64,000 nucleotides of DNA from Pseudomonadota bacterium. GTDB lineage: Bacteria > Myxococcota > Myxococcia > Myxococcales > Vulgatibacteraceae. The stretch is from assembly GCA_003242475.2 (NCBI GenBank), contig QGUN02000003.1, positions 245-64,244 on the forward strand, given 5' to 3'. Of the stretch, positions 17,558 through 47,486 are shown piece by piece. The notes below the pieces were generated by a model. The model had not been told where the DNA came from and did no database searches. It was given only the letters and a program-made list of their open reading frames with translations. The translations under genes were made by a program, and so were the position numbers. Within the stretch, counting starts at the first letter, position 1; every line of letters starts with the position of its first letter.

Positions 17558-18523
17558 GTGGAACTTTCGGAAGCACTCCCCCTGGTCCTCGGCTCCTACC
17601 TCGCCTTCGACGCGGTGGGCCGGCGGGTCCGGCTCGCCCTGGGAAACGCCCGCGGAGCCGGGGAGCGCGCCTTCCGTGTCTTTCATCATCGCGCCCTGGC
17701 GGAGGAGCGGCTCTGCGCGCCCGCCGAAACGAGCGGGCCGTCGGCGCTGCGGCCGCCCCATTCCGACAGGCTCGGGCCTTTCCCGCCGAGCTGGGCGAGG
17801 AGCGTCTTGTTCTTGCGCCAGCCGCCGCGTCTCGGGCAGGCGCGCGACCTCCTCCTCGCAGGGGCGGCGTCCCACGCGGCACGACTGGCACGGGCGGAGG
17901 ATCCGGAGCGGCTGGAGGAGCTCTTCACCTGGGCCGTCCTGATCCGGATCTGGGCGGACCAGCTCGACGCGGCCTCGGAGATCGCCCACGCGCTGGGGGA
18001 TGTGGTGGAGGATCCGGCGCCGGCGCACCGCCTCCTCGGCTGGATCGAGGCGAGGAGGGCGGAGGAGGGCCGCGGCCCGGAAGCGGTGGCCCGGGCGCTG
18101 GCCCACCTGGACCGGGTCGGAGAGCCGCTGCTCGAAACCCCGGCCTGGGCGGCCTTCCCCGCCCATCTCGCCCTCGTACGGCGGTCGTGGCTGCGGCTGG
18201 AGCTGGACCTTCTCGACTTTCGGCGGCGTCTGCGCGCCGTGGAGAGCCGGCATCCGCAGAGCCCCTTCGTCCATCTGCTCCGCGCGCACCGGGCGGCGGC
18301 GCTGGGCGACGTCGCCCAGGCCAGCGATCACCTCGCCCGCGCCCTCTACCACGGCCGCCGCGACCCCTACTTCGCCGGGCCCGTTCTCGGCCTGAGGGGA
18401 CTGGAGACGCTGCGGCCGGCGCTGTTGGGCCAGGCGCGGGCCGTACTGGCGGAGTCGAAGATTGACACCCGGGAAGCGGGGGTCCTAGAGTCGGGGCCTT
18501 CGGATCGGGGCCCGATCGCATGA
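17558..18523 (+). CDS. Hypothetical helical protein, translationally coupled to the PP2C gene
   Basis: GTG start. GC3-rich codon usage throughout. Its stop overlaps the next start (ATGA at 18520-18523). I recognise no family. Confidence 0.5.
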   Translation: MELSEALPLVLGSYLAFDAVGRRVRLALGNARGAGERAFRVFHHRALAEERLCAPAETSGPSALRPPHSDRLGPFPPSWARSVLFLRQPPRLGQARDLLLAGAASHAARLARAEDPERLEELFTWAVLIRIWADQLDAASEIAHALGDVVEDPAPAHRLLGWIEARRAEEGRGPEAVARALAHLDRVGEPLLETPAWAAFPAHLALVRRSWLRLELDLLDFRRRLRAVESRHPQSPFVHLLRAHRAAALGDVAQASDHLARALYHGRRDPYFAGPVLGLRGLETLRPALLGQARAVLAESKIDTREAGVLESGPSDRGPIA

Positions 18524-19767
18524 ACGTCGCTGCCTATGCCCTGACGGACGTCGGTCGCCGGCGCACGGAGAACGAGGACGGCTTTCTCGTCGACGAGGAG
18601 GTCGGCCTTTTTGCCGTCTGCGACGGGATGGGAGGGCACGCGGCCGGAGAGATCGCCTCGTCGCTCGCCCTCGAGATCCTGCGCAAGGAGGTGCGCAGCA
18701 ACACGCGCATCCTGCGCGCGCTCGCGGCGGACGCCACCGGCGCCCACCGCGCCGCCGCCGTGGAGCTGATGGAGCGCGCGGTGCAGCGCGCCTGCCGCGA
18801 GATCTACCGCCTCGCCCAGAGCGATCCCAGCAAGCGGGGCATGGGGACGACGTGCGCGGCCCTCCTCATCGCCGGCGGCAAGGGCGTGATCGCTCACGTC
18901 GGCGACTCGCGCATCTATCTTCTGCGCCACGGCCAGCTTCACCGGCTCACCGAGGACCACACTCTGGTCCAGACCCAGCTCAAGCAGGGCGTGATCACGC
19001 CGGACGAGGCGGAGAATTCCCCCTTCCGCAACGTGATCACCCGGGCGGTGGGCATCCAGGAGTCGGTGCAGGTCGATACGCTGCTCACCGACATCCTCCC
19101 CGGCGACCTCTTCTTGCTCTGCTCCGACGGACTGCACGGCTATTTCCGCGACGCGGAGGTGCAGAAGCTCCTGGCGACCGTATCGCCCGAGGCGCTGCCG
19201 CGAACGCTGGTGGACCTGGCCAACGAACGTGGAGGCCGCGACAACATCACCGTGGTCGTGGTCCGCGCCGGGGGCGCGATGGACCCGGCGCGCGTGAGCG
19301 AGGCCGAGGCCCGCCTCGCGGCGATCCAGCGGATCCCCCTCTTTCGCCACCTGACCTACAAGGAACAGATGGCGGTCCTCGCCATCGCCCATACCCGCAG
19401 CTGGGAGGCGGGGCAGATCATCGTCGAGGAGGGCCAGCTCGGGGACCAGCTCTTCATCCTCGTCCGCGGGCGGGTGGCCATCGAGACGGAGGGGATGAAG
19501 CTGGCCGAGCTCAAACCGGGCGCCCACTTCGGCGAGATGGGGCTGATCGAGCACGCGCCTCGCTTCGCCACCGTTCGGGCGCTGACGCCGGTCAGCTGCG
19601 TGGTCCTCGGCCGGACCGAACTTCTGGCCTTGATGCGCCGCGAGCCCGTCCTGGCGGTCAAGCTCCTCTGGAGCCTGGTCCAGGCGCTCTCCGAGCGGCT
19701 CCGTTCCTCCAACGCGGGCATGGCGATGCGCAGAAACCGCAAGGAGGAGCCCTTCGTTGACTCCTGA
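18520..19767 (+). CDS. PP2C-family Ser/Thr phosphatase fused to a cyclic-nucleotide-binding domain
   Basis: The N-terminus reads TDVGRRRTENEDGF...FAVCDGMGGHAAGEIAS...GGRDNITVVVV. The C-terminus reads IPLFRHLTYKE...GDQLFILVRGRV...GAHFGEMGLIEHAPRFATVRA, a CAP/cNMP fold. Confidence 0.85.
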   Translation: MNVAAYALTDVGRRRTENEDGFLVDEEVGLFAVCDGMGGHAAGEIASSLALEILRKEVRSNTRILRALAADATGAHRAAAVELMERAVQRACREIYRLAQSDPSKRGMGTTCAALLIAGGKGVIAHVGDSRIYLLRHGQLHRLTEDHTLVQTQLKQGVITPDEAENSPFRNVITRAVGIQESVQVDTLLTDILPGDLFLLCSDGLHGYFRDAEVQKLLATVSPEALPRTLVDLANERGGRDNITVVVVRAGGAMDPARVSEAEARLAAIQRIPLFRHLTYKEQMAVLAIAHTRSWEAGQIIVEEGQLGDQLFILVRGRVAIETEGMKLAELKPGAHFGEMGLIEHAPRFATVRALTPVSCVVLGRTELLALMRREPVLAVKLLWSLVQALSERLRSSNAGMAMRRNRKEEPFVDS

Positions 19768-30764: not shown

Positions 30765-30793
30765 CCCCCTGCCACCTCGGCAGGGGGTTTTTT
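30765..30793 (+). terminator. Rho-independent terminator after rpsA
   Basis: CCCCCTGCC-ACCTC-GGCAGGGGG followed by TTTTTT. Confidence 0.85.
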
Positions 30794-31066
30794 CGTGGTC
30801 GGCGGCTGGATGCTGGCAGTCTCGTCGACCAGCGTGCCTGCCCTCGACTCGTCGGCCGAGAGAGCGGCATTCTGTCCGCTGCGGGCGGGGCTTTTCTTTG
30901 CGGATGAAGGGAGCGGAAGCAGGCGCAGGCAACGGCGTAAAGAAGTCGTGATTGCTTCACCCCTTTTCACTTTTGAATTGACCGGCTGTTTCTGGCATGG
31001 GTCCGGGCGCTCTGTTTACTGGGGCTCGCTCTGTTTGCAGGGTGCGTTTTCGCCTGGACCGCAGGT

Positions 31067-31528: not shown

Positions 31529-32423
<895 letters not shown>

Positions 32424-32434
<11 letters not shown>

Positions 32435-34517
32435 CCTCCTGCTGGAGATCGGCACCGAGGAGATCCCGGCGGCCTTCTTCCCGCGCTGCCTGGACGATCT
32501 GGCTTCGCTGATCCGCAAGGGCCTGAAGGAAGCACGGCTGGAGCACGGTGAGGTCCGCACCTACGGCACGCCGCGGCGGCTCGCCGTGCTGGTGCACGAC
32601 GTGGCCTCCGCCCAGGAGGACCGGGTGGAGGAGGAGATCGGCCCGCCGGTCCGCGTGGCCTTCGACGCCGAGGGCAGGCCCACGCAAGCGGCGGAGCGCT
32701 TCGCGCAGAAGGTGGGTGTCGCCCTCGATGCGCTCGAGCGCCGGCAGACGCCCAAGGGCGAGTACCTGGCGGCACGGGTCGAGGTGAAGGGTCGACCGGC
32801 GCTAAAACTCCTCCCCGACATCCTCGTGGAGGCCATCCGGTCCATCCCCTGGAAGAAGAGCATGCGCTGGGGGACGGTCCAGGAGGCCTTCGCCCGGCCA
32901 ATCCACTGGATCCTGGCGCGTCACGGCGAGGCGATCGTCGACTTCACCTTCGCCGGCGTTCGCAGCGGCGGCACCACGCGCGGGCATCGCTTCCTCGCCA
33001 ACCGCGAGATCGAGATCCGTGCGCCCGCGGAGTACGTGGAGCGGCTGCGGGAGGCGGAGGTGATCGTCGATCCCGCCGAGCGGCGCGAGACCATCCTGCA
33101 CCTGGCGCGCGAGACGGCGGTGCGTGCCGGCGGTCGGCTCGAGGAGGACGAGGCGCTCCTCGACGAGATCACCTGGCTGGTCGAGCTTCCCGTGCCGGTC
33201 CTGGGCACCTTCGACCCCGCCTTCCTCGACCTGCCACGCGAGGTTCTCGTCTCCGAGATGCGGGAGCACCAGAAGTATCTGGCGGTGACCGTGGGGGATG
33301 GGGACAGGCTCCTTCCCGCTTTCGTGGGGATCGCCAACACGCGCGTGCGCGACCCCGAGGTGGTTCGGCGCGGCTACGAGCGGGTGCTGCGCGCCCGGCT
33401 CTCCGATGCGCGCTTCTTCTTCGACGAGGACCGCAAGGTTCCCCTCGCCGAGCGCGTTCCGCAGCTCGATCGCGTCACCTTCCAGCAGAAGCTGGGCTCG
33501 GTCGGCGACAAGGTTCGTCGCATCCGATCCCTCGCGCTTTACCTTGCGGAGCGCCTCGGGCTTTCGGCGGCGCAGCGCGCGCACGCCGAGCGCGCGGCCG
33601 AGCTCTGCAAGGCCGACCTCGTCACCGGCATGGTCGGGGAGTTTCCCGATCTGCAGGGCGTGATGGGACGCGAGTACGCGCGCGCCAGCGGGGAGCCCGA
33701 GGAGGTGGCGGTGGCGATCTTCGAGCACTACCTGCCCCGCGGTCAGCAGGACCGCCTGCCGAAGACGGACGCGGGCGCGGTGGTCGGGATCGCCGATCGC
33801 ATCGACACCATCGTCGGCATCTTCGGGATCGGCAAGCCGCCGACGGGAGCGGCCGATCCCTTCGGGCTGCGCCGCGCCTGCCTGGGCATCGTCCGCGTCG
33901 CGCTGGAGAAGGGCTACCGCTTTTCGCTCGGTGAGCTCGTCGACCGCGCGATCGACCAGCTCTCGGAGCGCATCACCCAGCCGCGCGACGAGGTGCGCGC
34001 GCAGGTTCTCGACTTCTTCGCGGGACGGCTGCGCAGCCACTTCGCCGAGGCGTACCCGGTCGAGCTCGTCGACGCGGTACTCGCCGCCGGATACGACGAG
34101 CTGCCGCAAATGCAGGCGCGCCTTTCGGCGGTGGCCTCGCACCTGGGCGACGAGAGCTTCCGCGGCCTGGCGGAGGGATTTTCGCGCACCAACATCGTGG
34201 AGAAGGCGCCCGGCTTTCAACCCGGACCGGTGGACGTTTCGCTTTTCCAGGCGGAGGCGGAGCAGGCGCTTCACCAGGCCTTCGTGCAGGTTCGCGAGCG
34301 CGTGAGCGAAAGCCTGCAGAGCGGCGATTTCTCGCGCGTGGTGAAGGTCTTCACCGAGCTGCGCGAGCCTCTCGACCGCTTCTTCACCGAGGTGATGGTA
34401 ATGGTCGACGACCCCGCCTTGCGCGAAAATCGCCTGCGGCTCCTCCACGAGATCCGCTCCCTCTTCGGCAAGGTGGCGGACTTCGGCCGGATGGATCTGC
34501 GGAAGGCGGCGGCGTGA
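32424..34517 (+). CDS. glyS: Glycine--tRNA ligase beta subunit
   Basis: [12 protein letters not shown]...YGTPRRLAV...GGTTRGHRF...[13 protein letters not shown]. Overlaps glyQ by 11 nt. Confidence 0.93.
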
Positions 34518-35893
34518 TGCGAAGAGGGCTGGTCTGGCTGGCGCTTCTCTGCGCGGCATGCGCACAGGAGATCGACGAGGGCGATCCGCTCCCCGAGGGC
34601 CGTTTCCACTATCCGACCGGCGTGACGCTGACGCCCGAGTTGGAAGGGCTTCCGCAGCGCCTGCTCGTCGTCTCCTCCAATACGGACCTGCGCTACCGGG
34701 CCGGCCGCGTGCACGCCTTCGATGCCGCTGCCCTGGACGCGCTCGTCGACGGGGCCACCGGCGGCTGTGAGGGCGCGGATTGCCCCGTCGTGGAGATCTT
34801 CGACCTCGAACCGGCCCTGGTCGGCAGTGTGGAGATCGGCTCGCTGGCCGGCGAGATCGCCGCCACCGCTCTCGACGGAGCCGGCCTGCCTCCCGTTCGC
34901 GCTTTCGTTCCCATCCGCGGCACGAGGACCGTGGTCGCGGTGGACCTGGACGCGGCGGGGATCCGCTGCGCGGAGCTGGACGGCGACTGCCGGGAAGGCG
35001 GAGCGGGATTCGCTCGGGAGGATCCCTTCGTCGTCGTCGCGCACCTGGGCACGGTCTTCGTCGGGCACGTCACGCTCTTTCGCGACCGGACCGGCGCGCT
35101 GGGCTTCGCTTCGGCCGCCGCCGACTTCTGGCGGACCGGGGGAGGTGCCCTGACGGCGATCGACCTCGGCCCGACGGCGGTGGGCGGCCTGGCGGTGGGC
35201 AACTGCCGCGAGGAGGGAGGGGAGCAGACCTGCACCGTCTACGTGAACGGCCGGTCGGGCGGCGACGCGCAGCGCCTCTTCGCCCTCGACTTTTCGGCGA
35301 ACGCCGTGCTCGAGAGTCCTCTTTTCTCGCGGAACGTCGGCCCCTTGCAGCGCGGCGCGGATTCCCGCGGCATCGCCGTCTCGCCGGCACGAGAGCGCGC
35401 CTACCTCGCGCAGCGCAACCCCGACGCCCTGGCCATCGTCGACGTCTCGCGCATGCCGGAGCTCCCCTCCGACGGCTGCATCGTCCCCGAGGGGGTGGAG
35501 TTACCGCCCGACGCGGGCTGTCCCGACCTGCCGCCTCCGACCGGAGAACGGCCGGCCTTCGCGCCCATCGCCCTGAGCCCGGCGCCCGGCCGGCCCATCG
35601 CGGCAGCGGTGATCGAGCGGGCGCCCGCCGGTGAGGCGAGCGATCTCGTGGTGCTGGCCACGACCCGTTCGCTCGCCTTCTTCGACGGCGCCACGGGCGC
35701 TCTCGTCGGCAACGTCCCGGGGATCGGCAGCGGCCCCGCGGCGATCGCCGTGCGGCAGCGCGGCGAGGGATTCCGCCTCTACGTCCCTTCCTTCGGCCGC
35801 TCCACCCTGGCCGTGATCGATCTCCCGGACCCCTTCCGGCCCGATCAGGCGCGGCTCGTCGCCCAGCTCGGCCGGCCGCGGGAGGACTCGTGA
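34514..35893 (+). CDS. Putative lipoprotein with beta-propeller-like (YVTN-type) repeats
   Basis: Signal LVWLALLCAAC. Recurrent GIAV / LYV / LAVIDL style blades (SRGIAVSPARERAYLAQRNPDALAIVDV; GPAAIAVRQRGEGFRLYVPSFGRSTLAVIDL). Its start overlaps the glyS stop. Confidence 0.6.
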   Translation: MMRRGLVWLALLCAACAQEIDEGDPLPEGRFHYPTGVTLTPELEGLPQRLLVVSSNTDLRYRAGRVHAFDAAALDALVDGATGGCEGADCPVVEIFDLEPALVGSVEIGSLAGEIAATALDGAGLPPVRAFVPIRGTRTVVAVDLDAAGIRCAELDGDCREGGAGFAREDPFVVVAHLGTVFVGHVTLFRDRTGALGFASAAADFWRTGGGALTAIDLGPTAVGGLAVGNCREEGGEQTCTVYVNGRSGGDAQRLFALDFSANAVLESPLFSRNVGPLQRGADSRGIAVSPARERAYLAQRNPDALAIVDVSRMPELPSDGCIVPEGVELPPDAGCPDLPPPTGERPAFAPIALSPAPGRPIAAAVIERAPAGEASDLVVLATTRSLAFFDGATGALVGNVPGIGSGPAAIAVRQRGEGFRLYVPSFGRSTLAVIDLPDPFRPDQARLVAQLGRPREDS

Positions 35894-37944
35894 TGCGCCG
35901 GAGGATCTGGTTCCTTCTCGCCCTGGCGACGGCCGCCTGCGCCGAAGAGGTGATCCCCTCCTTCGGTGACCTCCAGACGCCGGTGGCCCTCGCGGTCCAT
36001 CAGCCCTCCGGGCGGGTCCTCGTCGCCTCGCAGGACGCCGACGAGCTGCGCGTCTTCGACCTGGAGTCGCGCGAGTACCTGGCGGCGCCGGCCGTCTCCT
36101 TTCCGCTCTCCATCCCCACCGTGCCGAGCCCGCGGCTCCTCGTCGCCGGCGAGCGCTTCGCCTTCGTGGTCTCGGGGGCCGACGGCGCGGTCGGCTTCGT
36201 GGACGCGGTGGTGCCGCCCGGCGCCTTCGGGCCGCGCAGCGTGGACGACGACGAGGGGCGTCCGGTGGCCGTCTTCGGCGGCCTGCTCCCGACCGCGGCG
36301 CTTCCCCTCGTCAGCCCCCACCACTACGCCGAAGGCCTGGGCGATCACGCCCTCGTCGGCGGACTTTCCCTCGACGGGACGGGCAGCCGGATCGTCGTCG
36401 TTCGCCCTCCCTTCGAAGGGGTGGAGCCGGAGGTGGTGGCCGAGCTCGACCTGCCCGGGATCGGGCTGGCGGGGCTGGCGCTCGAGCCCGCCTTCGAGGG
36501 CGACGTGCCCGATTGCCGCGCCGTGGCCATCGCCGACCTCGGCGGGCCCGGCGGGGAGGGCGGGGGGATCCACCTCGGGCGGGTACGGGTCGAGGCCGAC
36601 GGCAGCGTAGCGCTGGAGGCGCCGGCCGAGCGGATCGAGGTACGCGTGGAGGTGGTGCTCCCCGACGGCTCGGTCGAGGAGCGCGCGGCGGCGGTGCGCG
36701 CGGTGGAATTCGCCCCGGTCCGTCCGGCTCCCGACCTCGCCAGGGCGGTGGCCGCCGACCCTTGCGTGCTGCGCTCGGGGCGCCTCTACGCCATCCTCGA
36801 CCGCGCCCACTGCGGCGGGGCGGCGGTCTGCCCGAACTTCGCGGTCATCGACCTGCCCTCCGGCGCGCTGGCGACCGACCGCAGGGACGGCGGCGCCGCC
36901 GCCTACGAACTGCCGGGGGCTCCCCTGAGCCTGCTGCGCATCGACGGTCCGATCCAGGTCGAGGGCGCCTTCGTCGACGCCGTCGTGGAGGAGGACGGCC
37001 GGCCCGAGCTGCGCTCGGAGCCTGCCGGGCGCATCTTCGGCCTCGTCCTCGTGGCCGGGAGCGACGGGAGCGTGACCTTCGTCGCGGGCGGCATCGGCAC
37101 CACCCTCACGGGGCCCGGCGGGCGCCGTCCCTCCGATCCCGCCTTCCTGCTCGACGCCGAGAACGCCGTTCCCGGCATCACCAGCGGCCCGGTCCGCATC
37201 GATCGCCGGGCCACCGTCTTGCCGCGGATCTCGTTCCCGCCCGAGGCGCGGCCGCGCGACGAGGAATGGACCGCGGCCTTCGAGGGGCCCTTGCCGGGGC
37301 TGGCCAACCTCGGCGGACCGGCGAATCTCGTCGGCGATCGCTTCGAGCTTCCCGCGTCGAGCGCGCAGGATTTCGTCATGCCGCTGCCCGTCCTCGCCTC
37401 GGAGGATCCGGAGGAGGCCGACCGCCTCGTCCCGCTGCAGTCGACCGCGGTCGAGCCTTCCTGCGACGGCTTCCCGGTGGTGGGGGTGGAGGAGGGCGGC
37501 CGCGCCCTGCGCGTGCGGCGGGACGCGCCCGGCTTCTCCAACCCTCCCGAGTGCCTGGAGGGCAACGTCTCCTTCGCCATCCTTCCGCCGCGCGCCCGGC
37601 CCTGGACGCTGACGGGGAGCCGGACCGGCTTCGCGGGGCGGGCGCCGGCCGATCCCGGTCTGCGGCAGCAGGTCCGCTTCGGTCGTCGGCTTCTCTTCGA
37701 GTTCCAGCCGCCCGAGGAGGCGGTCGAGCGCGGCGCCACCTTCCGCTGGACCACCAGCTCCGGCTTCACCTTCCTGCAGGTCTCCCGCTCGTCGCTCTTG
37801 CTTCCGGCCTCGTTGGCCCTTTACCGGCTCGGCGATGCGCAGGACGTGCGGGTGATCGTCGCCTTCAGCGGCTCGGACGCGATCGCGATCTTCGACCCCG
37901 CCGTCCCGCCGACGCCACGGTCGGGGCTGGACGTCTATCGTTGA
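35890..37944 (+). CDS. Putative lipoprotein, beta-propeller-like; related in style to the preceding gene
   Basis: Signal IWFLLALATAAC. N-terminal blade PVALAVHQPSGRVLVASQDADELRVFDL. Overlaps the previous gene by 4 nt. Confidence 0.6.
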   Translation: MMRRRIWFLLALATAACAEEVIPSFGDLQTPVALAVHQPSGRVLVASQDADELRVFDLESREYLAAPAVSFPLSIPTVPSPRLLVAGERFAFVVSGADGAVGFVDAVVPPGAFGPRSVDDDEGRPVAVFGGLLPTAALPLVSPHHYAEGLGDHALVGGLSLDGTGSRIVVVRPPFEGVEPEVVAELDLPGIGLAGLALEPAFEGDVPDCRAVAIADLGGPGGEGGGIHLGRVRVEADGSVALEAPAERIEVRVEVVLPDGSVEERAAAVRAVEFAPVRPAPDLARAVAADPCVLRSGRLYAILDRAHCGGAAVCPNFAVIDLPSGALATDRRDGGAAAYELPGAPLSLLRIDGPIQVEGAFVDAVVEEDGRPELRSEPAGRIFGLVLVAGSDGSVTFVAGGIGTTLTGPGGRRPSDPAFLLDAENAVPGITSGPVRIDRRATVLPRISFPPEARPRDEEWTAAFEGPLPGLANLGGPANLVGDRFELPASSAQDFVMPLPVLASEDPEEADRLVPLQSTAVEPSCDGFPVVGVEEGGRALRVRRDAPGFSNPPECLEGNVSFAILPPRARPWTLTGSRTGFAGRAPADPGLRQQVRFGRRLLFEFQPPEEAVERGATFRWTTSSGFTFLQVSRSSLLLPASLALYRLGDAQDVRVIVAFSGSDAIAIFDPAVPPTPRSGLDVYR

Positions 37945-37972
37945 GAGGCCAGCGGGAAGGGCGGCAAGGCGC

Positions 37973-39937
37973 TTGCACCAGAGGGTGCACATGGCGCCCG
38001 ATCTCCTCCCCGTCTTCCTCGTCGTCCTCGCGGCCTCGGCTGCGTCCATCGCGGTCTACACGGACCTGAAGGCCCGCCGGATCCCCGACTGGCTCACCCT
38101 GCCGACCCTGGCGACGGCGCTGCTGGGGCGGCTGGCGATGGCCGGAATTTCGGGCCCCCTTGGCCTGCTCGACGGGCTTCTGGGCCTGGCTGTCGCCTTC
38201 CTCGCCTTCTTCCTCCTCGCCCTCGGCGGCGGGATGGGGATGGGCGACGTCAAGCTGATGGCGGCGATCGGGGCGATCCTCGGCTGGGAACGGACGCTGT
38301 ACGCCCTCGTCTTCGTTTCCCTGGCGGGCGGCGTCCAGGCCATCGCCTGGACCCTGCGAAGCGGGCGACTCCTCCAGACCCTCGTCCGCTCGCTCAGGCG
38401 GCTCGTCCGGCCCTTCGCGCGGCCGGAGAAGGACGAGGGGCAGTACCTCCCCTACGCGGTGGCGATCGCCGCCGGCACGCTGGCCACCTTCCTCTTCCGC
38501 GGCTTCGCTCTTCTTCTCGCACTTTTCGTCGCCGCGGGGCCTCGCTCGGCCGCGGCGGAGTCGGTGATCCATCTCGGCGTCGGCACGCAGAAGGTCCTCA
38601 AGATTCGCGGCGGCATTCAGCGCATCGCCGTCGGCAATCCGGAGATCGCCGACGTGCGGCCCCTGGGGGACGGCGAGATCCTCGTCGTGGGCGTGCGCGA
38701 GGGAAGGACCACGCTGCTGGTCTGGCGAGCCAGCGGCGCTCGCGACAGCCACCTGGTGGTGGTGCGCAAGGTTTCCACCGAGGACCTCGCCGACGAGGTT
38801 CGGGCCCTCCTCGGCGAACGCGAGGGACTGGTCGTTCGGGCCGCGGGGGAACGGGTGATCATCGACGGCGAGGCCTATACCCCCGAGGACCACCGCCGCG
38901 TGCAGGCCGTCCTCGAGCTCTACCCCGACGTCCGCTCCATGGTCCGGGTCACGGAGCACGCCCGCAACCTCTCCGTCGCGGAGATCAACCGCGAGCTTCG
39001 GAGGGCCGGGCTCGGTCACGTGGTGGCGCAGGCGATCGGGGGAAGGATCGTCCTCGAAGGCCACGTCGAATCGGAGGTCGAGAAGCGCAAGGCCGAGCTC
39101 GTCGTCGCGGCTCTGGGCGAGACCGCCGAAAACCTCGTCCAGCTCGGCCTGCGGCGCATGGTCCTGTCGGAGGTGCATTTCCTCGAGGTGCGACGGTCGA
39201 AGATGCGCCAGCTCGGCATCCGCTTTCCCTTCGACGTCGCGGGCAGCGCCGCGGCCGCCACCGCGATCCAGGGGAACTTCCCGGTGGACGGCGGGGGCCG
39301 CGTCACCGTCGGCAGCTACGAGGCGCTGGTGGAGGGCACGGGGCAGTGGTCGCTTCGCATGGCGGTCGACAAGGGATTCGGCCGCCTCCTCGCCCAGCCC
39401 ACCCTGGTCTGCGCCTCGGGCGAGGAGGCCGAGTTCCTCGCCGGCGGCGAGGTGCCGCTGCCGCTCATCACCCAGAACAGCAATACCGTCGAGTATCGCA
39501 AGTACGGCGTCGTCTTGCGGCTGCGGCCCACCGCCGACCGCAACGGAAACATCGTCACCGAGATCGAGGCGGAGGTCTCCGAGCTCGATCGCTCCGTCGC
39601 CGTCGCCGTCGGTCCCAACGTCTCCGTCCCCGGCTTTCGCAACCGCTCGGTGAAGACCTCGGTGACCGTGCGAAGCGGCGAGACCATCGTGCTTTCCGGC
39701 GTCTACACCCTCGACGAGCAGAAGAGCGTCTCCAAGGTCCCGCTGCTCGGCGACATCCCCATCCTCGGCGAGCTCTTCAAGCAGCGCACCACCGACGACA
39801 CCGAACGCGAACTGCTCATCTTCGTCACGCCTCGCCTCGTCAATCCGGAGAGCCGGGAGGTGGTCTCCGCCATCGAGCGGATGCGCGAGACCTACGAGGC
39901 GGGCGAGCGCGAACTTGGATTCGGAATCCTCGACTGA
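37973..39937 (+). CDS. Single ORF joining an A24 prepilin peptidase (CpaA/TadV-like) to a CpaC/RcpA-type secretin
   Basis: Residues 1 to about 175 carry YTDLKARRIPD and GGGMGMGDVKL, the two Asp motifs, with multiple TM segments. An internal signal-like segment GFALLLALFVAAGPRSAAA-ES follows. Next comes a pilus N-terminal domain (VIHLGVGTQKVLKIRGGIQRIAVGNPEIADV). Then a secretin core (LAQPTLVCASGEEAEFLAGGEVP...VPLLGDIPILGELFK...ERELLIFVTPRLV). There is no stop and no ATG/GTG/TTG at the junction. Confidence 0.8.
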   Translation: MHQRVHMAPDLLPVFLVVLAASAASIAVYTDLKARRIPDWLTLPTLATALLGRLAMAGISGPLGLLDGLLGLAVAFLAFFLLALGGGMGMGDVKLMAAIGAILGWERTLYALVFVSLAGGVQAIAWTLRSGRLLQTLVRSLRRLVRPFARPEKDEGQYLPYAVAIAAGTLATFLFRGFALLLALFVAAGPRSAAAESVIHLGVGTQKVLKIRGGIQRIAVGNPEIADVRPLGDGEILVVGVREGRTTLLVWRASGARDSHLVVVRKVSTEDLADEVRALLGEREGLVVRAAGERVIIDGEAYTPEDHRRVQAVLELYPDVRSMVRVTEHARNLSVAEINRELRRAGLGHVVAQAIGGRIVLEGHVESEVEKRKAELVVAALGETAENLVQLGLRRMVLSEVHFLEVRRSKMRQLGIRFPFDVAGSAAAATAIQGNFPVDGGGRVTVGSYEALVEGTGQWSLRMAVDKGFGRLLAQPTLVCASGEEAEFLAGGEVPLPLITQNSNTVEYRKYGVVLRLRPTADRNGNIVTEIEAEVSELDRSVAVAVGPNVSVPGFRNRSVKTSVTVRSGETIVLSGVYTLDEQKSVSKVPLLGDIPILGELFKQRTTDDTERELLIFVTPRLVNPESREVVSAIERMRETYEAGERELGFGILD

Positions 39938-39964
39938 GGTCTCGACCTTTTTGCGGAGGAAGCC

Positions 39965-41506
39965 ATGGAAATCCGGATCACCGGTCCCGGCGATGCCTCC
40001 TTCACCTTTTCGCTTGTCGAGAGCGCCCTGGTGGGACGGGCCGTGGGATGCGATCTGAGGCTGGACGATCCGCAGGTCTCCAAGCGCCACGCGCGGATCT
40101 GGCTGGAGGGGGCTCGGGCGTGGATCGAAGACCTCGGCTCGCGCAACGGCACCTGGATCGACGGCCGGCGGGTCGAAGGCCCCGCGCCCATCCCGCCCGA
40201 CGCGCGCCTCTGCGTGGGGCCCTTCTCACTCGAAGTGTGTGCATCCGAGAAAGGGGACGCGGCCGAGGATCCGGTGGAACTTCGGCGGGCACTCATCGAG
40301 GAGGTGATCGCCGCCCTCGACCCGCGGCGGCTCGAGATCGAGAACCTTCCCGAGGAGGAGTTGCGCCGCCGCACCGACGAGGCCATCGCGCGCATCCTCG
40401 CCGAAGCTCGCGAAGCGATCCCGCCCTCGATCACCGTCGAGTCGCTGCACCGAGAGATCCTCGACGAGGTCCTCGGGCTGGGGCCCCTGGAGGCGCTTCT
40501 GGCCGACGACTCCATCACCGAGGTGATGGTCAACGGCCCTGCCCGGATCTACGTGGAGCGGGAGGGACGGCTGGAGCTTTCCCCGCGGGTCTTCTCCTCC
40601 GAACGCGCGCTCCTCGGTGCGATCGAGCGGATCGCCGCTCGCGTCGGACGCCGCATCGACGAGGCGTCGCCCATCGTCGACGCGCGCCTACCCGACGGCT
40701 CGCGCGTCTGCGCCATCATCCCGCCTTTGGCGCTCTGCGGCCCCTGTCTCACCATTCGCAAGTTCCGCCACGATCGGCTCGGCCTCGACGACCTGGTACG
40801 GCGGGGCACGCTCTCCGAGCCGATGCGAAGATTTCTCGAGCTGGCGGTGCGGGCTCGGCGCAACGTGGTGATCTCCGGCGGGACCGGCTCGGGAAAGACC
40901 ACGCTTCTCAACGCGCTCACCGAGTTCTTCTCCGAGGGAGAGCGGATCCTCACGGTGGAGGACGCCGCCGAGCTGCAGATCCGCAAGCCGCACTGGGTTC
41001 GTCTCGAGGCCCGGCCGCCCAACATGGAAGGAAAGGGCGCCGTCACCATCCGCGACCTGGTGCGGGCCAGCTTGCGCATGCGCCCCGATCGCATCGTGGT
41101 CGGCGAATGTCGAGGCGGCGAGGCGCTCGACATGCTGCAGGCGATGAATACCGGCCACGATGGCTCGCTGACCACCGTGCACGCCAACTCGCCCCGCGAC
41201 GCCATCGCCCGCATGGAGACGCTCTGCCTCATGGCGGGGATGGACCTGCCATCCCGCGCCATCCGCGAGCAGATCGCCAGCGCCGTTCACCTGGTGGTGC
41301 AGACCGCGCGCCTCCCCGACGGCCGGCGGCGGGTGGTCTCCATCGCCGAGGTCACGGGCATGGAGGGGGAGCGGGTGACGCTCCAGGAGATCTTCGTCTG
41401 GGACGGCGGCCACCGGGCCGTGGGCTTCGTCCCCGCCTTTTGCGAGCGCATGCGCGAACACGGAGAGGACCTCGACCTCTCGATCTTCCAGCCCGGGGGA
41501 GGTTGA
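39965..41506 (+). CDS. cpaF: FHA domain fused to a CpaF/TadA-type secretion ATPase
   Basis: FHA signature VGRAVGCDLRLDDPQVSKRHARIW...IEDLGSRNGTWIDGRRV. ATPase motifs include TEVMVNGP, Walker A ISGGTGSGKTTLLNAL, ERILTVEDAAEL, RMRPDRIVVGECRGGEA and NTGHDGSLTTVHAN. Confidence 0.88.
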   Translation: MEIRITGPGDASFTFSLVESALVGRAVGCDLRLDDPQVSKRHARIWLEGARAWIEDLGSRNGTWIDGRRVEGPAPIPPDARLCVGPFSLEVCASEKGDAAEDPVELRRALIEEVIAALDPRRLEIENLPEEELRRRTDEAIARILAEAREAIPPSITVESLHREILDEVLGLGPLEALLADDSITEVMVNGPARIYVEREGRLELSPRVFSSERALLGAIERIAARVGRRIDEASPIVDARLPDGSRVCAIIPPLALCGPCLTIRKFRHDRLGLDDLVRRGTLSEPMRRFLELAVRARRNVVISGGTGSGKTTLLNALTEFFSEGERILTVEDAAELQIRKPHWVRLEARPPNMEGKGAVTIRDLVRASLRMRPDRIVVGECRGGEALDMLQAMNTGHDGSLTTVHANSPRDAIARMETLCLMAGMDLPSRAIREQIASAVHLVVQTARLPDGRRRVVSIAEVTGMEGERVTLQEIFVWDGGHRAVGFVPAFCERMREHGEDLDLSIFQPGGG

Positions 41507-41509
41507 TGG

Positions 41510-42592
41510 ATGCGGGCGAGAGCATCTGTGCTTTTCGTTTCCGCGCTCTGCGCGGCGGTGGTGGCGGCGCTGGCGAGCCGGGCCATCGTCGCGCGCGGGT
41601 GGGAAGCAGCGCCAGCGGAGGCGCCGGGCCCCGACCTCGCCGATTTCACCGCGGAGCGGAAGGGCCGGGAACTCGCCCTCTCCCGGCTGGTCGAGGAGGG
41701 GAGGTGGGAGACGGTCGAACGCGAGGCGCAGGCCCTGCTCGATCTCGACCCGATCAGCGAGGTCGCTCGCGCGGCGCTCGAGCGCAGCCGCGAGGAGATC
41801 GACGCCCGCGACCGGCTCGAGAAGGCGCTTCACCTGCTCGAGGAGGGGCGCGAGGAGGATGCCCTTCTCGGGCTCCTGGCGATCCCGGAGGCGACCGAGG
41901 CGGGGACGAGGGCGAGGGTGGAGGCCGGGCCGCTCCGGGAGCGGGTGGCAAGGAGGGCCCGAGCGGATTGCCTCGGCCTGGCCCGCGCCGGCCGCCACGA
42001 GGAAGCGCTGAGGCGATGCCGGCTCCACCTGGATCTGACCTGCGGCGAGGAGGCCGACCCCGCGGTTCTGCAGCGGCAGCGTTGGCTGGAGCGGAAGCTC
42101 GGCCTCGCCGGGGATGCGGCCTGGAGCTGCCCCCAGCGCTCGGTCGCGATCGTGGAGGCCGGCGGGGCAGACGTGCGGGCCATCCTGCGGGCCTGGGAAC
42201 GAGGCGAGGCCGGCGACCACGCCGCGCTGCGGCTCGAGCGCCTCGCCGAAAAGGGAGACGCGGAGGCCGCCCGCCACGCGGAAGCGGTACGCGAGGCGGA
42301 GATCCGCCTGCGGGAAGCCGCCTCCTCCCTCCTCGACGGGGAGCTGGAGCGGGCGTACCGGGCCCTCGGGCAGGCGGCCGCCACCGAGGAGCGGCTTCTG
42401 GGGCGGAGGCGCTCGCTGCGCTACCTCGAGCTCTCCGAGCGCTTCGCCCGGCTCGCTTTGAAGCGGGGGCTGGAGCTTTCCGAAAAGCGACGTTTCCGCG
42501 AGGCCCGGGAGATCCTACGCCTGGCCGCCGAGCTCGATCCCTCCAACCTGGACGTCTTGCGCGCCCTATGGCGACTGGAGGACGCCGAGTAG
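41510..42592 (+). CDS. Membrane-anchored helical-repeat (TPR-like) protein, possibly a TadD-like accessory
   Basis: N-terminal hydrophobic anchor VLFVSALCAAVVAALA. The remainder is Ala/Glu/Arg/Leu-rich helical repeats. The start lies 3 nt after the cpaF stop. Confidence 0.5.
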   Translation: MRARASVLFVSALCAAVVAALASRAIVARGWEAAPAEAPGPDLADFTAERKGRELALSRLVEEGRWETVEREAQALLDLDPISEVARAALERSREEIDARDRLEKALHLLEEGREEDALLGLLAIPEATEAGTRARVEAGPLRERVARRARADCLGLARAGRHEEALRRCRLHLDLTCGEEADPAVLQRQRWLERKLGLAGDAAWSCPQRSVAIVEAGGADVRAILRAWERGEAGDHAALRLERLAEKGDAEAARHAEAVREAEIRLREAASSLLDGELERAYRALGQAAATEERLLGRRRSLRYLELSERFARLALKRGLELSEKRRFREAREILRLAAELDPSNLDVLRALWRLEDAE

Positions 42593-42775: not shown

Positions 42776-45505
42776 ATGGAATCCGGCACCCGACCCGTCC
42801 TGACCCTGATCGACGGCTCCGCCTACATCTTCCGCGCCTACCACGCCATCCGTGCCGAACTCTCCACCTCGACGGGCATCCCCACCCGCGCCGTCTACGG
42901 CTTCACCCGGATGCTCCTCAAGTCGTTGCGGGAGGCCTCACCCACCCACGTGGCGGTGGTCTGGGATCGGGACGGGAGGGCGGTTCGCCACCAGCTCGAC
43001 CCCGAGTACAAGGCCCATCGCGAGGAGACGCCCGACGACCTCAAGGCCCAGTTCCCCTACATCCGGCAGGTGGTCGAGGCCCTGGAGGTGCCGAGCGTGG
43101 AGAAGGAGGGCTGGGAGGCGGACGACGTCATCGCCACCTTGACTCGCCGCGCCGTCGAGGAGGGCTTCGACGTGGTCATCGTCACCGGCGACAAGGATTT
43201 CTCCCAGCTCGTCGGCCCCCACGTGCGGCTCTACGACGGCATGCTCGACCGTTGGACGGGGCCCGCCGAGGTGGAGGAGCGGTGGGGCGTGCCGCCCGAG
43301 CTCTTCGTCGAGGTACAAAGCCTCGTCGGCGATACCTCCGACAACATCCCCGGCGTGCCCGGGGTGGGGAAGAAGACCGCGGCGGACCTCGTGCGCAAGT
43401 ACGGCAGGCTCGAGGAGGTGATCGCGGCGTGCGAGCGCGGCGAGGTCAAGAGCAAGCGGATCGCGGAGGCGATCCTCGCCGCGAAGGAGAGGCTCGCGCT
43501 CAACCGCGACCTCGTCCGGCTCCGCGACGACCTGGAGCTCGAACGCGGGCCGGCCGACCTCGCCCGGCGCACGCCGGACGTCGGCCGCGTGCAGAACCTC
43601 TTCCGCGAGCTCGAGTTCTACGCGCTCTTGCGCGAACTTCCCGCGGTCCTGCGCCAGGTGGGGGTTCCCTACGTCCAGCCGGCGTCACGGGAGCCGGTCC
43701 AGGCCGCCGAATTCCAGATCCCGCCCGTCGAGATCGTCGTCGAGCCGGAGGAATTCGGGCGGCTGCTCTCCCGCGTCCGCGGGGCCGAGCGCCTCGGGTT
43801 GCGCCTGGCGCCTCCCGAGGAGCGGGTCCACCTGGCCTCGCCCCCGGGCGTCGCCCTGGCTTTCCCCGGCGAGGCGAGCGCCTACGTTCCCCTGGGGCAT
43901 CAGGGCCTGTTCGAGCGGGGTGCCGCCGATCCCGACGCCTGGCTTCGCGAGCTGGTGAAAGCGGTGGGAGAGCGGCCCTGGTCCGGCATCCAGACCAAGC
44001 GCGACCTCCTCCTCGTCCTCGCGCGCGGCCTCTCGATTCCCGGGCCCGCGGGCGACGCGGAGCTCGCGGCCTACCTTCTCAACCCGGCCCGGCGCACATT
44101 CGACATCGTCGACCTGGCGCGGGAAAAGCTCGGCGCCGAACTACGCGAGTACGCCGAGATCGCCGGCGCGGGAAGGGATCGGCGGCCCTTCGCGCTCCTC
44201 GACGCGGAGGTCGGCGGCACTTGGCTCGCCCAGACCGCGGCCTGCGCCCTGGCCGTGGAGGAGCGGTTGCGGCCGGAACTCGAGCAGGCGGGCCTCGACC
44301 GGATCTACCGCGAGCTCGAGATCCCTCTCGTCCCCATCCTGGCGCGGATGGAGCACGTGGGCGTCAAGCTCGATCCCTCGAGGCTGGAGGCGCTCGGCAA
44401 GGAGGTCGACGCCCGCCTCGCCGAGGTGCTGGAGGCCTGCCATCGCGTGGCCGGGCGCGAGGTGAACGTGGCTTCCCCGCGCCAGCTCGCCCAGCTCCTC
44501 TTCGAGGAGCTCAAGCTCCCGGTGATCAAGCGGACCAAGACCGGCCCCTCCACCGACCACGAGGTGCTCGAGAAGCTCGCCGAGCAGCACCCGCTGCCGA
44601 AGCTGATCCTCGAGCACCGCATGCTGGCCAAGCTCAAGGGAACCTACATCGACACGCTGCCCCAGCTCGTCTCCGAGGACGGCCGCCTGCGCACCACCTT
44701 CGAGCAGGCGGGAACCGCCACGGGGCGGCTCTCCTCGAGCAATCCCAATTTGATGAACATCCCCATTCGCACCGAGCTGGGACGGCGGATCCGCCAGGCC
44801 TTCGTCGCCGAGGAGGGCTACCTCCTCCTCACCGCCGACTACTCCCAGATCGAGATGCGGGTCCTCGCCCACGTCACCGGCGACCCCGGGCTGATCCGTG
44901 CGCTGCGCGAAGGGGCCGACATCCACCGCCGCACCGCATCCGAGATCTTCGACGTGAAGGAAACGGAGGTGACGCCGGAGCAGCGGGGCGTGGCCAAGAT
45001 GGTCAACTACGCCGTGGCTTACGGCCTTTCTGCCTACGGCCTCTCCACCCGACTGGACATCACGCCCCGCGAGGCGGCCGACATCATCGCCCGCTACTTC
45101 GAGCGCTACGCGGGGGTGAAGGCCTGGATCGACCGCATCGTGGAGGAGGCCCGGCAAAAGGGCTACGTCACCACCCTGGAGGGGAGGCGGCGCTTCTTGC
45201 CGGACCTGCGCTCGCGCAACCCGAATCTGCGGCAGGCGGCGGAGCGGGCGGCGATCAACATGCCCATCCAGGGCACCGCCGCCGACATCATGAAACGGGC
45301 GATGATCCGCGTCGACCAGGCGCTCTCGGCGGCCCGCAGCGGGGCGAGGCTGCTTCTGCAGGTCCACGACGAGCTCGTCCTCGAGGTGCCCCAGGGGGAA
45401 GTCGAGAAGGTCAGCCACATCGTTCGCGAGGGCATGGAGGGCGCGGCGCACCTGGACGTTCCCCTGGTGGCGGAGATCAACGTCGGCGAAACCTGGGAGA
45501 AATGA
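42776..45505 (+). CDS. polA: DNA polymerase I
   Basis: 5' nuclease region LIDGSAYIFRAYHA...VTGDKDFSQL. Polymerase motifs DYSQIEMRVLAH, RGVAKMVNYAVAYG and LLQVHDELVLEV. Confidence 0.95.
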   Translation: MESGTRPVLTLIDGSAYIFRAYHAIRAELSTSTGIPTRAVYGFTRMLLKSLREASPTHVAVVWDRDGRAVRHQLDPEYKAHREETPDDLKAQFPYIRQVVEALEVPSVEKEGWEADDVIATLTRRAVEEGFDVVIVTGDKDFSQLVGPHVRLYDGMLDRWTGPAEVEERWGVPPELFVEVQSLVGDTSDNIPGVPGVGKKTAADLVRKYGRLEEVIAACERGEVKSKRIAEAILAAKERLALNRDLVRLRDDLELERGPADLARRTPDVGRVQNLFRELEFYALLRELPAVLRQVGVPYVQPASREPVQAAEFQIPPVEIVVEPEEFGRLLSRVRGAERLGLRLAPPEERVHLASPPGVALAFPGEASAYVPLGHQGLFERGAADPDAWLRELVKAVGERPWSGIQTKRDLLLVLARGLSIPGPAGDAELAAYLLNPARRTFDIVDLAREKLGAELREYAEIAGAGRDRRPFALLDAEVGGTWLAQTAACALAVEERLRPELEQAGLDRIYRELEIPLVPILARMEHVGVKLDPSRLEALGKEVDARLAEVLEACHRVAGREVNVASPRQLAQLLFEELKLPVIKRTKTGPSTDHEVLEKLAEQHPLPKLILEHRMLAKLKGTYIDTLPQLVSEDGRLRTTFEQAGTATGRLSSSNPNLMNIPIRTELGRRIRQAFVAEEGYLLLTADYSQIEMRVLAHVTGDPGLIRALREGADIHRRTASEIFDVKETEVTPEQRGVAKMVNYAVAYGLSAYGLSTRLDITPREAADIIARYFERYAGVKAWIDRIVEEARQKGYVTTLEGRRRFLPDLRSRNPNLRQAAERAAINMPIQGTAADIMKRAMIRVDQALSAARSGARLLLQVHDELVLEVPQGEVEKVSHIVREGMEGAAHLDVPLVAEINVGETWEK

Positions 45506-45666: not shown

Positions 45667-46296
45667 ATGAAGTCGAAAGCGTGGTTCGGACTGGTCGCGG
45701 CCCTCTTCTTCTCGACGGGCTGCGAGCTGCTCTGGGAGTGGTACTACGGCGACGTGGACGAGCCCTGCGCCGACGTATGGGAGCCCGTCTGCGGCCGCGA
45801 CGGCGTGACGTATCCCAACGCCTGCGTCGCCCGCCAGGAGGGGGTGGCCGTCGCCTACCGGGGCGAGTGCGAGGACGACTGCCGACTCGATCGCAACGTG
45901 CGTTGCGAGGTCATGTGCGACTGTCCGCGGATCTGGGAGCCGGTCTGCGACGCTGCGGGCAACGTCTACGCGAATCGGTGCTTCGCGCGCTGCGCCGAGG
46001 CCGGCGAGGTGGAGCCCTGCGACGTCGACCGCTGCGCCTGCCCCGACGTGTGGGAGCCGGTCTGTGACGCGCGAGGCAACGTTTACGCCAACCGCTGCGA
46101 GGCCCGCTGCCTGGGCGAGACCCGGGTGCGTCCCTGCGATCGGGAGGGCGATCCGGTCCCGCCCCGCGAGCCTGGCGAGGATTGCGAATGCCCCCTGCTG
46201 TGGGCGCCCGTTTGCACGGCCGACGGCTCCGTCTATCCCAACCGCTGCGTGGCTGCCTGCGAGGGGGTCTACGACGTCGTTCCCTGCGAAAGCTGA
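45667..46296 (+). CDS. Lipoprotein with four tandem Kazal-type (serine protease inhibitor-like) domains
   Basis: Signal WFGLVAALFFSTGC. Four repeats of C-x4-5-(E/A)PVC-x3-G-x-(T/V)Y-x-N-x-C-x-A-x-C...C: CADVWEPVCGRDGVTYPNAC, CPRIWEPVCDAAGNVYANRC, CPDVWEPVCDARGNVYANRC, CPLLWAPVCTADGSVYPNRC. Confidence 0.8.
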   Translation: MKSKAWFGLVAALFFSTGCELLWEWYYGDVDEPCADVWEPVCGRDGVTYPNACVARQEGVAVAYRGECEDDCRLDRNVRCEVMCDCPRIWEPVCDAAGNVYANRCFARCAEAGEVEPCDVDRCACPDVWEPVCDARGNVYANRCEARCLGETRVRPCDREGDPVPPREPGEDCECPLLWAPVCTADGSVYPNRCVAACEGVYDVVPCES

Positions 46297-46406: not shown

Positions 46407-47486
46407 TCAGTGCAGGTAACGGGGCCGGGAAGGGGGCTCGAAGCCGTCCTCGCCCGGCCCGCGTTCTTCCGAGGACCCGGCCGCGGGCCATTCGCCGAGC
46501 GGGGCGGTCCCGCTCCACCCGCGGCCCTCGTCCGGCCCGGGAGCGGAGGGGGCTTCCGCGGGGGACGTGAACGCCTCGTCGAGCGCTTCCTCGGCCTCCA
46601 TCTCCTCGAGCCGCCGCCGGCGGCTCCTCTTCTTTCTCCACGCGGCCACGAGGAGGACGAGCGCCGCGCTCGCCCAGAGGAGCTCGGTGTCCATGAGGAC
46701 GGCGAGCCAGCCGTAGCGCAGCTTCAGGCTACGCCTCCACTCCTCCTCCAGAACGACGAGCGGCTTGCCGTAGGCCTGGGTCAGCGCCTCGGGGAAGGCG
46801 CGGCCTTCCGCCAGACCCGCGATCAGGCGGCGAAAGGGCTCGCCCCGCTCGACCGCGATCAGGTGGCCGACCATCGAGGCGCTCTGGGCGTAGGCGAGGT
46901 TCACGTCGGTGGGCGAGTGGGGCCAGTCCTCGTCGAGTTCCGAGAGGGGGATCAGCGCCCGGGCCAGGGTGGCGCGCGCCACCACGGCGGCGCGCGAGCG
47001 GTCCCACTCGCTGGCCACGTGCAGGGCGAAGCCCTCGTTGAACCAGCGCGGGACGGGGCCCTGGACGAGCCGTCCAAGGGCGACGTGGGCGAACTCGTGC
47101 AGGACCACGTTGCGCACGCTCCCGGCCCGGCCCGAGGCCTGCGCGTCCACGACGAGGATTCCCAGGCCGGAGAAGGCCACGCCCGCGGCCCAGCCCGGTG
47201 GCCGGGCGCCGGCAGGCTGGAGGGCCTGGAATTCCTCGCGGCCGTAGGCGATGCGGATCTCCACCGGGCGCGGGTCGGAAAGGCCGAGGATGGCCTCGAT
47301 CCGGCGCCAGTCGTCGGCGAGGTCTTCGGCGAGGTCGCGGGCGATCGCCTCCGCGGGCCCGGGAGCGGCCACGAGGACGAGGCGGGGATCGTCGGGTACG
47401 GGGACCGGTCGAACCTCGATGGCCGCAGCGGCGGCGGAAAGGAACGGGGCGAGGAGAAGGGCCAGTAGCAGGAGCGCGCGCCTCAT
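46407..47486 (-). CDS. Secreted zinc metallopeptidase (MA-clan, HExxH) with a C-terminal TM anchor
   Basis: Signal [18 protein letters not shown]. Contains [12 protein letters not shown]...[10 protein letters not shown], a TM segment [15 protein letters not shown] and a charged tail. Its ATG overlaps the DUF167 stop (ATGA). Confidence 0.65.

Follow-up and report, generated by a model that had tools for sequence, protein, structure and literature searches.

Why should genes for a Tad-like pilus machine, with no pilin among them, lie directly behind glyQ and glyS in a GC-rich genome? The question is raised by a 64,000-nucleotide stretch of contig QGUN02000003.1 (here called the window; G+C ~70%), in which five genes, g1 to g5, follow glyS, all on the + strand and all with third-position G+C content (GC3) of the coding type. 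We consider it very probable that Kil cluster I of Myxococcus xanthus (MXAN_3102-3108) has its orthologue here, at positions 34517-42592, which would make the locus one part of a Tad-like pilus machine whose remainder is encoded elsewhere. So read, the locus is Kil cluster I rather than a new system, and the machine is of a known kind (published in 2021 and 2025), not a new class. The genes concerned and their immediate neighbours are as follows:

glyQ, 31529-32434, + strand: Pfam tRNA-synt_2e, 2e-146; upstream neighbour conserved with Kil cluster I
glyS, 32424-34517, + strand: Pfam tRNA_synt_2f, 2e-211; upstream neighbour conserved with Kil cluster I
g1, 34514 or 34517 to 35893, + strand: lipoprotein with a YVTN/NHL-type beta-propeller, orthologue of MXAN_3102
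g2, 35890 or 35893 to 37944, + strand: MXAN_3103 orthologue, a lipoprotein that combines a propeller with other beta domains
g3, 37991-39937, + strand: Peptidase_A24-secretin fusion (KilA-KilC)
g4, 39965-41506, + strand: KilF orthologue, FHA domain and TadA/CpaF-type ATPase
g5, 41510-42592, + strand: homologue of the C-terminal half of KilD only
polA, 42776-45505, + strand: identified by Pfam and synteny; downstream neighbour conserved with the cluster

In M. xanthus, the Kil machine is a Tad-like apparatus encoded in two clusters and responsible for contact-dependent prey killing (Seef et al. 2021, PMC8460266). Cluster I (MXAN_3102-3108) encodes a cd1-like propeller, a YWTD propeller, an FHA protein, the peptidase KilA, the N0-less secretin KilC, the FHA-ATPase KilF and KilD, which has FHA and TPR domains; MXAN_3102 and MXAN_3103 are listed as its two predicted outer-membrane lipoproteins, and cluster II (MXAN_4648-4661) provides KilB, KilG, KilH and pilins (PMC8460266). 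The major pilin KilP and the minor-pilin 'tips' are encoded at further loci (Herrou et al. 2025, PMC12075869), and the distribution of Kil across Myxococcales has already been surveyed (PMC10196010).

When the window proteins were mapped by tblastn onto 80 Myxococcota loci around KilC relatives, taken from GTDB species genomes, the order glyQ-glyS-3102-(3103, 3104)-kilA-kilC-kilF-kilD-polA recurred in Myxococcus, Corallococcus, Pyxidicoccus, Archangium, Hyalangium and Citreicoccus, with ~3 kb between the g1-like gene and kilA. Vulgatibacter incomptus, whose genome is complete, shares this order through kilF and a short KilD-like gene, with polA not downstream. The window itself has the FHA-TadA ATPase, the N0-less secretin, the A24 peptidase directly upstream of kilC (here fused to it), the two lipoproteins and the slot between glyQS and polA. 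The likeness to Kil that an initial annotation had pointed to thus proves to be true orthology, gene for gene and at the same chromosomal position, from which it follows that the lipoproteins are not novel partners and that the glyQS context is ancestral. That annotation had taken the glyQS linkage for an unusual context, a view that must be dropped: glyQ-glyS-kil-polA is kept in dozens of genomes of Myxococcaceae and Archangiaceae, and V. incomptus keeps glyQS-kil. On this synteny, which also answers the concern that the arrangement might be unique to one assembly, the glyQS neighbourhood is a conserved trait of this Myxococcota branch rather than an assembly peculiarity, consistent with long vertical inheritance of cluster I within it. 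The carrier is an uncultured, metagenome-only myxobacterium whose nearest named relative is Vulgatibacter (identity to a Vulgatibacter metagenome-assembled genome [MAG] of 87% for rpsA, 84% for glyQ and 66% for polA).

Pfam searches matched neither g1 nor g2, but each protein has a signal peptide and a conserved, indeed invariant, lipobox Cys. A profile of the g1 family matched YVTN/NHL/cd1-type propellers in the PDB (1l0q, E 9e-14), g1 itself matched its orthologue from Myxococcus sp. Y35 by BLASTP (E 5.5e-11), and profile-profile alignment to the MXAN_3102 family with hhalign gave a probability of 100 (E 8e-43). For g2, the corresponding alignment to the MXAN_3103 family spanned 602 columns (probability 99.9, E 2.9e-36). 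A sequence-profile search of the PDB with g2 returned nothing significant; its fold is taken from an AlphaFold (AF2) model, which is all-beta with a pLDDT of 87 and a pTM of 0.79, and from a Foldseek search with that model, which found mostly propeller proteins (hydrazine synthase beta, YncE, DDB1-like) and a few other all-beta folds. Close homologues of g2 number only 18, all from the window clade or Vulgatibacter. The lipobox Cys, the 1l0q match and the g2 model bear out the earlier description of two propeller-like lipoproteins. Their billing as 'novel lipoprotein partners' does not survive: on the profile alignments (E 8e-43 and 3e-36), g1 corresponds to MXAN_3102 and g2 to MXAN_3103 as orthologues (PMC8460266).

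The ATPase g4 matches FHA (2.2e-17) and T2SSE (3.5e-63) in Pfam, has the TadA family as its best NCBIfam match (TIGR03819, 9e-107), carries the Walker A motif GGTGSGKT and is 48% identical to KilF of Myxococcus sp. Y35 (E 2e-176). In g5, an N-terminal hydrophobic segment (transmembrane [TM] or signal) precedes a Cys-containing helical/TPR-like domain with a weak TPR match, in keeping with its first description as a membrane-anchored helical/TPR-like protein. Residues 53-354 of g5 align with residues 345-694 of the KilD family (hhalign probability 98.4, E 1e-14), and four cysteines of the C-terminal domain align with those of KilD. g5 has no FHA domain, and V. incomptus has the same short form. 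Only 50 relatives of g5 were found among 1.84 billion representatives, mostly as C-terminal regions of proteins of 500-770 amino acids (aa).

In 39 of 40 KilD orthologues from the fetched loci, a strongly hydrophobic segment lies between two N-terminal FHA domains and the Cys-containing C-terminal domain; in Myxococcus sp. Y35 (L088:13974-16196), this segment covers ~23 aa (residues 296-318) and is preceded by KRKK. The Kil papers term KilD a 'predicted cytoplasmic multidomain protein' (PMC8460266, PMC12075869); judged by its sequence, it looks like a bitopic protein of the inner membrane whose C-terminal domain is periplasmic. This domain, periplasmic on that reading, is the part kept in g5.

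Going by the M. xanthus orthologues, g1-g5 would together supply the outer-membrane channel, two outer-membrane propeller lipoproteins and the prepilin peptidase, with g4 acting as an FHA-regulated extension ATPase and g5 as a membrane-anchored homologue of the periplasmic part of KilD. The machine would then serve contact-dependent interaction with, or killing of, other cells, as it does in Myxococcus.

The cluster is tightly packed, and from glyS to g5 its genes either overlap by 1-4 nt or are separated by 3-46 nt. The glyS/g1 and g1/g2 junctions both read GTGATG, such that a GTG start produces a 4-nt overlap and an ATG start a 1-nt overlap. Gene calls on identical public contigs pick the ATG at these junctions, and g1 more likely starts at ATG 34517 than at GTG 34514; the overlap of the first start with the glyS stop, as originally reported, holds with either. 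Because every relative begins at the equivalent Met, the start of g3 is most likely ATG 37991, not TTG 37973, and the g2-g3 gap is therefore 46 nt instead of the 28 nt first given. The rest of that layout stands (five same-strand genes, with gaps of 27 nt between g3 and g4 and 3 nt between g4 and g5), and 183 nt separate g5 from polA.

The initial annotation was right to list an A24-secretin open reading frame (ORF) and an FHA-TadA ATPase (Pfam E-values from 2.2e-17 to 3.5e-63), but it missed that the fusion in g3 is the truly unusual feature of the locus. This protein matches Peptidase_A24 (1.2e-19), T2SS-T3SS_pil_N (3.9e-18) and Secretin (2.4e-42), with a sub-threshold match to BON and none to the N0/Secretin_N domain in Pfam. 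Both catalytic Asp residues of the peptidase are present (D24, and D86 in GMGD), and the secretin part is 51-58% identical to KilC of Vulgatibacter, Archangium, Corallococcus and Myxococcus (54% for Myxococcus). Three parts can be told apart:

g3 N-terminal part, residues 1-170, 38500 being its last position (37991-38500), + strand: short KilA/FppA-type A24 prepilin peptidase, by Pfam and alignment
Fusion junction, residues 171-189, GFALLLALFVAAGPRSAAA, 38501-38557, + strand: retained hydrophobic core and AxA site of the former secretin signal peptide
g3 C-terminal part, 38558-39937, + strand: KilC-type short secretin with pil_N, BON-like and secretin domains, no N0

Aligned with g3, stand-alone KilA proteins end 4-7 residues past the same last TM helix. 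In the fused proteins, a single Arg links this helix to the segment that reads GFALLLALFVAAGPRSAAA in the window and that lines up, position by position, with the signal peptide at the start of stand-alone KilC proteins; all five fused sequences aligned have an AxA motif (AAA, AEA, AEA, AQA and AHA) at the corresponding cleavage site, with ES next in each. Because a strongly basic loop precedes the last KilA helix, the positive-inside rule predicts an N-in/C-out orientation for it, which would lead to export of the secretin domain behind it. In V. incomptus, kilC begins with a GTG that overlaps the stop of kilA (GTGA), with a GGAGG motif just upstream. We propose that a small deletion at such an ancestral 4-nt overlapping junction created the fusion, and that the last peptidase helix and the retained signal-peptide core now act as an internal export signal that would deliver the secretin domain into the periplasm. 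Signal peptidase I would then probably cut after the conserved AxA and free a normal secretin, which is the simplest expectation from the sequence. Separate translation of the secretin from an internal start was considered and rejected: the sole in-frame GTG (V157) lies within the last TM helix, and its Shine-Dalgarno-like motif is weak and badly spaced.

Among 100 relatives of g3, Peptidase_A24 and Secretin occur together in nine full-length clusters that are 64-100% identical to it (P0001-P0007, P0009 and P0010), the remaining listed relatives being stand-alone secretins, mostly of ~480 aa. By these comparisons, the in-frame kilA-kilC fusion belongs to a small uncultured clade near Vulgatibacter. 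In the ancestral arrangement kilA and kilC share 4 nt (GTGA in V. incomptus), and one erroneous indel would be enough to merge them, but we find it scarcely credible that the fused ORF is an assembly or frameshift artefact: at least six samples yielded contigs, assembled independently, with the same ORF, and diverged relatives (64-90% identity) share the fusion with different junction sequences. The cluster of the fused protein lists 38 contigs; the ATPase with a sequence identical to that of g4 occurs in 38 indexed blocks of the collection, and at each of six places displayed, from six samples, the fused ORF adjoins it. Two relatives whose loci were inspected, L089 and L090, also carry it. 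A literature search found no published peptidase-secretin fusion; as far as the literature shows, one with a retained internal signal peptide is new. The best fused relative in the genome collection (L009, DATGOH010000209.1) is 78% identical and sits in a MAG that bears the name Fredinandcohnia sp., from a genus of Bacillota, and P0001, the window's own protein, has the NCBI label 'Pseudomonadota bacterium'. Neither name seems right for a GC-rich, Vulgatibacter-like myxobacterium; mis-binning or coarse taxonomy is the probable cause.

If the fusion protein were left uncleaved, a single chain would span the envelope as a covalent tether, from a peptidase in the inner membrane to a secretin in the outer one. 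We regard this as doubtful, although KilC lacks N0, the domain that normally contacts inner-membrane partners (PMC8460266), the fusion is retained in every member of the clade with both halves under selection, and AF2 joins the last TM helix and the former signal peptide in one continuous helix (residues 153-181, at low confidence). Against it, an AxA at the exact signal-peptidase position in 5 of 5 aligned fusions is hard to explain without cleavage, and only ~5 residues lie between that site and the first beta domain. An extended version, in which an unprocessed secretin ring is covalently anchored to a ring of inner-membrane peptidase as a minimal Kil machine made constitutively from the glyQS transcript, seems to us improbable. 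Were it true, a built-in trans-envelope connector would replace the missing N0 domain, pilotin and alignment contacts, and pilin maturation would sit directly under the channel. The natural fusion argues that peptidase and secretin work in fixed proportion or close together, and it implies that the KilA C-terminus faces the periplasm, offering a ready-made construct for testing.

One feature marks a likely upstream limit of transcription:

Terminator-like hairpins after rpsA, 30774-30890, + strand: likely 5' boundary of the glyQS-kil transcription unit

No terminator-like site was found in the intergenic gaps from glyQ to polA. The single + strand site in that interval (41506-41529) falls on the g4/g5 junction inside coding sequence, and terminator-like sites overall are at chance level (6 versus 5.5 expected). 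A sigma-70 scan returned no promoter, with 0.4 expected by chance, and is uninformative in a GC-rich genome; an Rfam scan of 30-46 kb returned nothing. The hairpins after rpsA, the terminator-free gaps and the tight packing together make co-transcription of g1-g5 with glyQS likely, and translation may be coupled across the TGATG junctions.

Throughout the fused clade, glyS and g1 overlap or lie 1 nt apart. At the other end of the cluster, the stop of the KilD-like gene overlaps the polA start by 4 nt in L089 (L089:14674-14677), and the two genes are 9 nt apart in L090 (L090:14159-14169), so that the glyQ-polA string looks like one tightly packed unit. Several MAGs of Archangiaceae and Myxococcaceae (L017, L076, L074, L056, L075, L084, L013, L011 and L054) likewise have the first kil gene -4 to +13 nt from the glyS stop, with starts assigned by a simple lipobox criterion that may misplace some of them; tight coupling to glyS thus extends beyond the fused clade.

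Because no platform or pilin genes lie in the cluster, the KilG/KilH platform, the CpaB-like KilB and the pilins must be encoded elsewhere, as in M. xanthus. Pfam searches of called genes detected no TadB/TadC, CpaB, TadZ or Flp gene in the window or in ~8.7 kb past its right end, where all called genes apart from the cluster are housekeeping genes, and no Flp-like G/xxxxEY motif turned up when all six translated frames were scanned by regex. Hidden pilin genes, in gaps or in overlapping frames, were considered and rejected, since the gaps hold no pilin-sized ORF and the Flp motif is missing. The statements of the initial annotation that the window holds no other Tad parts and its gaps no hidden pilin accordingly withstand Pfam, motif scan and ORF check, and no complete canonical Tad locus adjoins the cluster within the window or the ~8.7 kb beyond it. 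Its view of the locus as the outer-membrane and ATPase half of a Tad-like machine split between loci is upheld by the orthology to Kil cluster I.

A decaying remnant, with cluster I surviving wedged between essential genes after the rest of the machine was lost, would likewise leave no other Tad component within ~73 kb and a cluster II that the search with a KilH fragment did not locate. We hold this to be very unlikely. All five genes are under purifying selection: the ratio of nonsynonymous to synonymous substitution rates (dN/dS) against L089 is 0.21 for g1, 0.35 for g2, 0.17 for g3, 0.16 for g4 and 0.24 for g5, near the glyS value of 0.13 (polA, 0.10), and against the 90% identical relative the two halves of g3 give 0.33 (peptidase) and 0.10 (secretin). 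V. incomptus and relatives as distant as 64% identity also keep the same five genes. With dN/dS at 0.16-0.35 and with the catalytic Asp residues and the Walker A motif intact, the module appears to be in use.

Several observations nevertheless weigh against our reading of the locus as a working part of a split Kil machine. The cluster lacks the MXAN_3104 FHA protein (only 46 nt separate g2 from g3, with no such gene between them, and Vulgatibacter lacks it too) as well as the FHA half of KilD; since KilD is needed for killing in M. xanthus, regulation may differ. The KilH fragment, taken from a published supermatrix and used as a query for cluster II, retrieved 867 TadC-like proteins, none tied to the window's samples; two match contexts that were inspected contain RcpC-T2SSF-T2SSF cores, one followed by an FHA gene, but belong to other samples and other Myxococcota. 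As cluster II and the pilins were not located, the split machine rests on orthology and selection. In addition, promoters inside glyS are still conceivable, and in the AF2 model of g3 the peptidase part has a pLDDT below 50, such that the model does not settle its topology.

In the 69% identical fused-clade relative L090, a 117-aa ORF and a Ser/Thr kinase gene (Pkinase) lie between the equivalents of g2 and g3 (L090:8363-9558), in the place where Myxococcus has the FHA protein MXAN_3104. This kinase may be a partner for the FHA domain of KilF.

The same Kil-type Tad pilus could also have another job, adhesion or surface sensing rather than prey killing. Tad pili of the canonical type mostly serve as adhesins (PMC8460266), the cluster is short of accessory FHA signalling parts (it has neither the MXAN_3104 protein nor the FHA domains known from KilD), and tight housekeeping coupling suggests constitutive expression, as opposed to the starvation-induced expression reported for M. 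xanthus (PMC8460266). We judge this alternative unlikely: reports of Kil-type systems were limited to Myxococcales, Bdellovibrionales and Bradymonadales, predators without exception (a later survey also lists some Polyangiales genera and Herpetosiphonales; PMC10196010), KilF keeps its FHA domain and the secretin its short N0-less KilC architecture, and the Ser/Thr kinase inside the L090 cluster fits retained phospho-signalling. The locus suggests that an uncultured lineage known only from metagenomes carries the Kil contact-killing apparatus.

The Vulgatibacter-type minimal cluster indicates that the MXAN_3104 protein and the FHA half of KilD are dispensable, and that the conserved core consists of the two propeller lipoproteins together with the C-terminal, Cys-containing domain of KilD. 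This minimal FHA-poor form of the cluster is new as far as the literature shows, as is the explicit placement of cluster I in a conserved glyQS-polA slot. The very close spacing of the genes from glyS to polA also counts among the new traits of the locus.

Other genes of the window were noted in passing. Before glyQ come a ribosomal-protein/secY/rpoA cluster, hisS, miaA, accA, cmk, ispH and rpsA; right behind rplQ, where the ribosomal-protein/rpoA cluster ends, 14750-16930 encodes a protein of 726 aa with ASH/HYDIN-like Ig-fold repeats. At 18520-19767, 15 kb upstream of the FHA-containing cluster, lies a gene whose product joins a PP2C-type Ser/Thr phosphatase to a cyclic-nucleotide-binding domain. 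Just after polA, 45667-46296 encodes a 209-aa protein with Kazal-type protease-inhibitor domains, followed on the opposite strand by a Peptidase_MA_2 gene (46407-47486); the pair is kept in L089.

Among known systems, that of Bdellovibrio bacteriovorus (bioRxiv 10.64898/2026.07.08.737194) resembles the window in having dispersed Tad-like loci in a predator, with a fusion of its own (TadZ-TadA) and FHA/TPR regulators nearby, but it has no dedicated TadV (PilD is used), its fusion partners are others and there is no linkage to glyQS. With the canonical Tad/Flp (Cpa) systems of Caulobacter, Aggregatibacter and Pseudomonas, the window shares a CpaA/TadV-type peptidase, a CpaF/TadA ATPase and a CpaC/RcpA-type secretin with pil_N and BON-like N-terminal domains. 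Unlike them, it has no adjacent flp, tadB/C, rcpC/cpaB, tadZ/cpaE, tadD pilotin or tadE/F/G, its ATPase carries an FHA domain, its secretin lacks N0 and propeller lipoproteins stand in the place of these parts. V. incomptus DSM 27710 (CP012332, L095), the closest named relative, has the same compact set without MXAN_3104, comprising lipoproteins of 470 and 704 aa and a short KilD-like protein of 333 aa; its kil genes are 45-65% identical to those of the window, glyQ and rpsA being 84-87% identical in the Vulgatibacter MAG. It differs in that kilA (178 aa) and kilC (480 aa) are two genes with GTGA as their overlap, a gap of ~240 nt follows glyS and polA is not downstream. In M. xanthus, kilA and kilC are likewise separate, whereas the window has one ORF; MXAN_3104 is present there and absent here, KilD has ~740 aa with two FHA domains against 360 aa (TM and C-terminal domain) in the window, KilF has ~600 aa against 513 aa, and 110-190 nt follow glyS in cultured Myxococcus and close relatives where the window has an overlap. 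The two nevertheless agree in their overall plan: in both, the platform, the CpaB-like protein and the pilins are not in cluster I, and the genes of the cluster follow the same order in the same slot between glyQS and polA.

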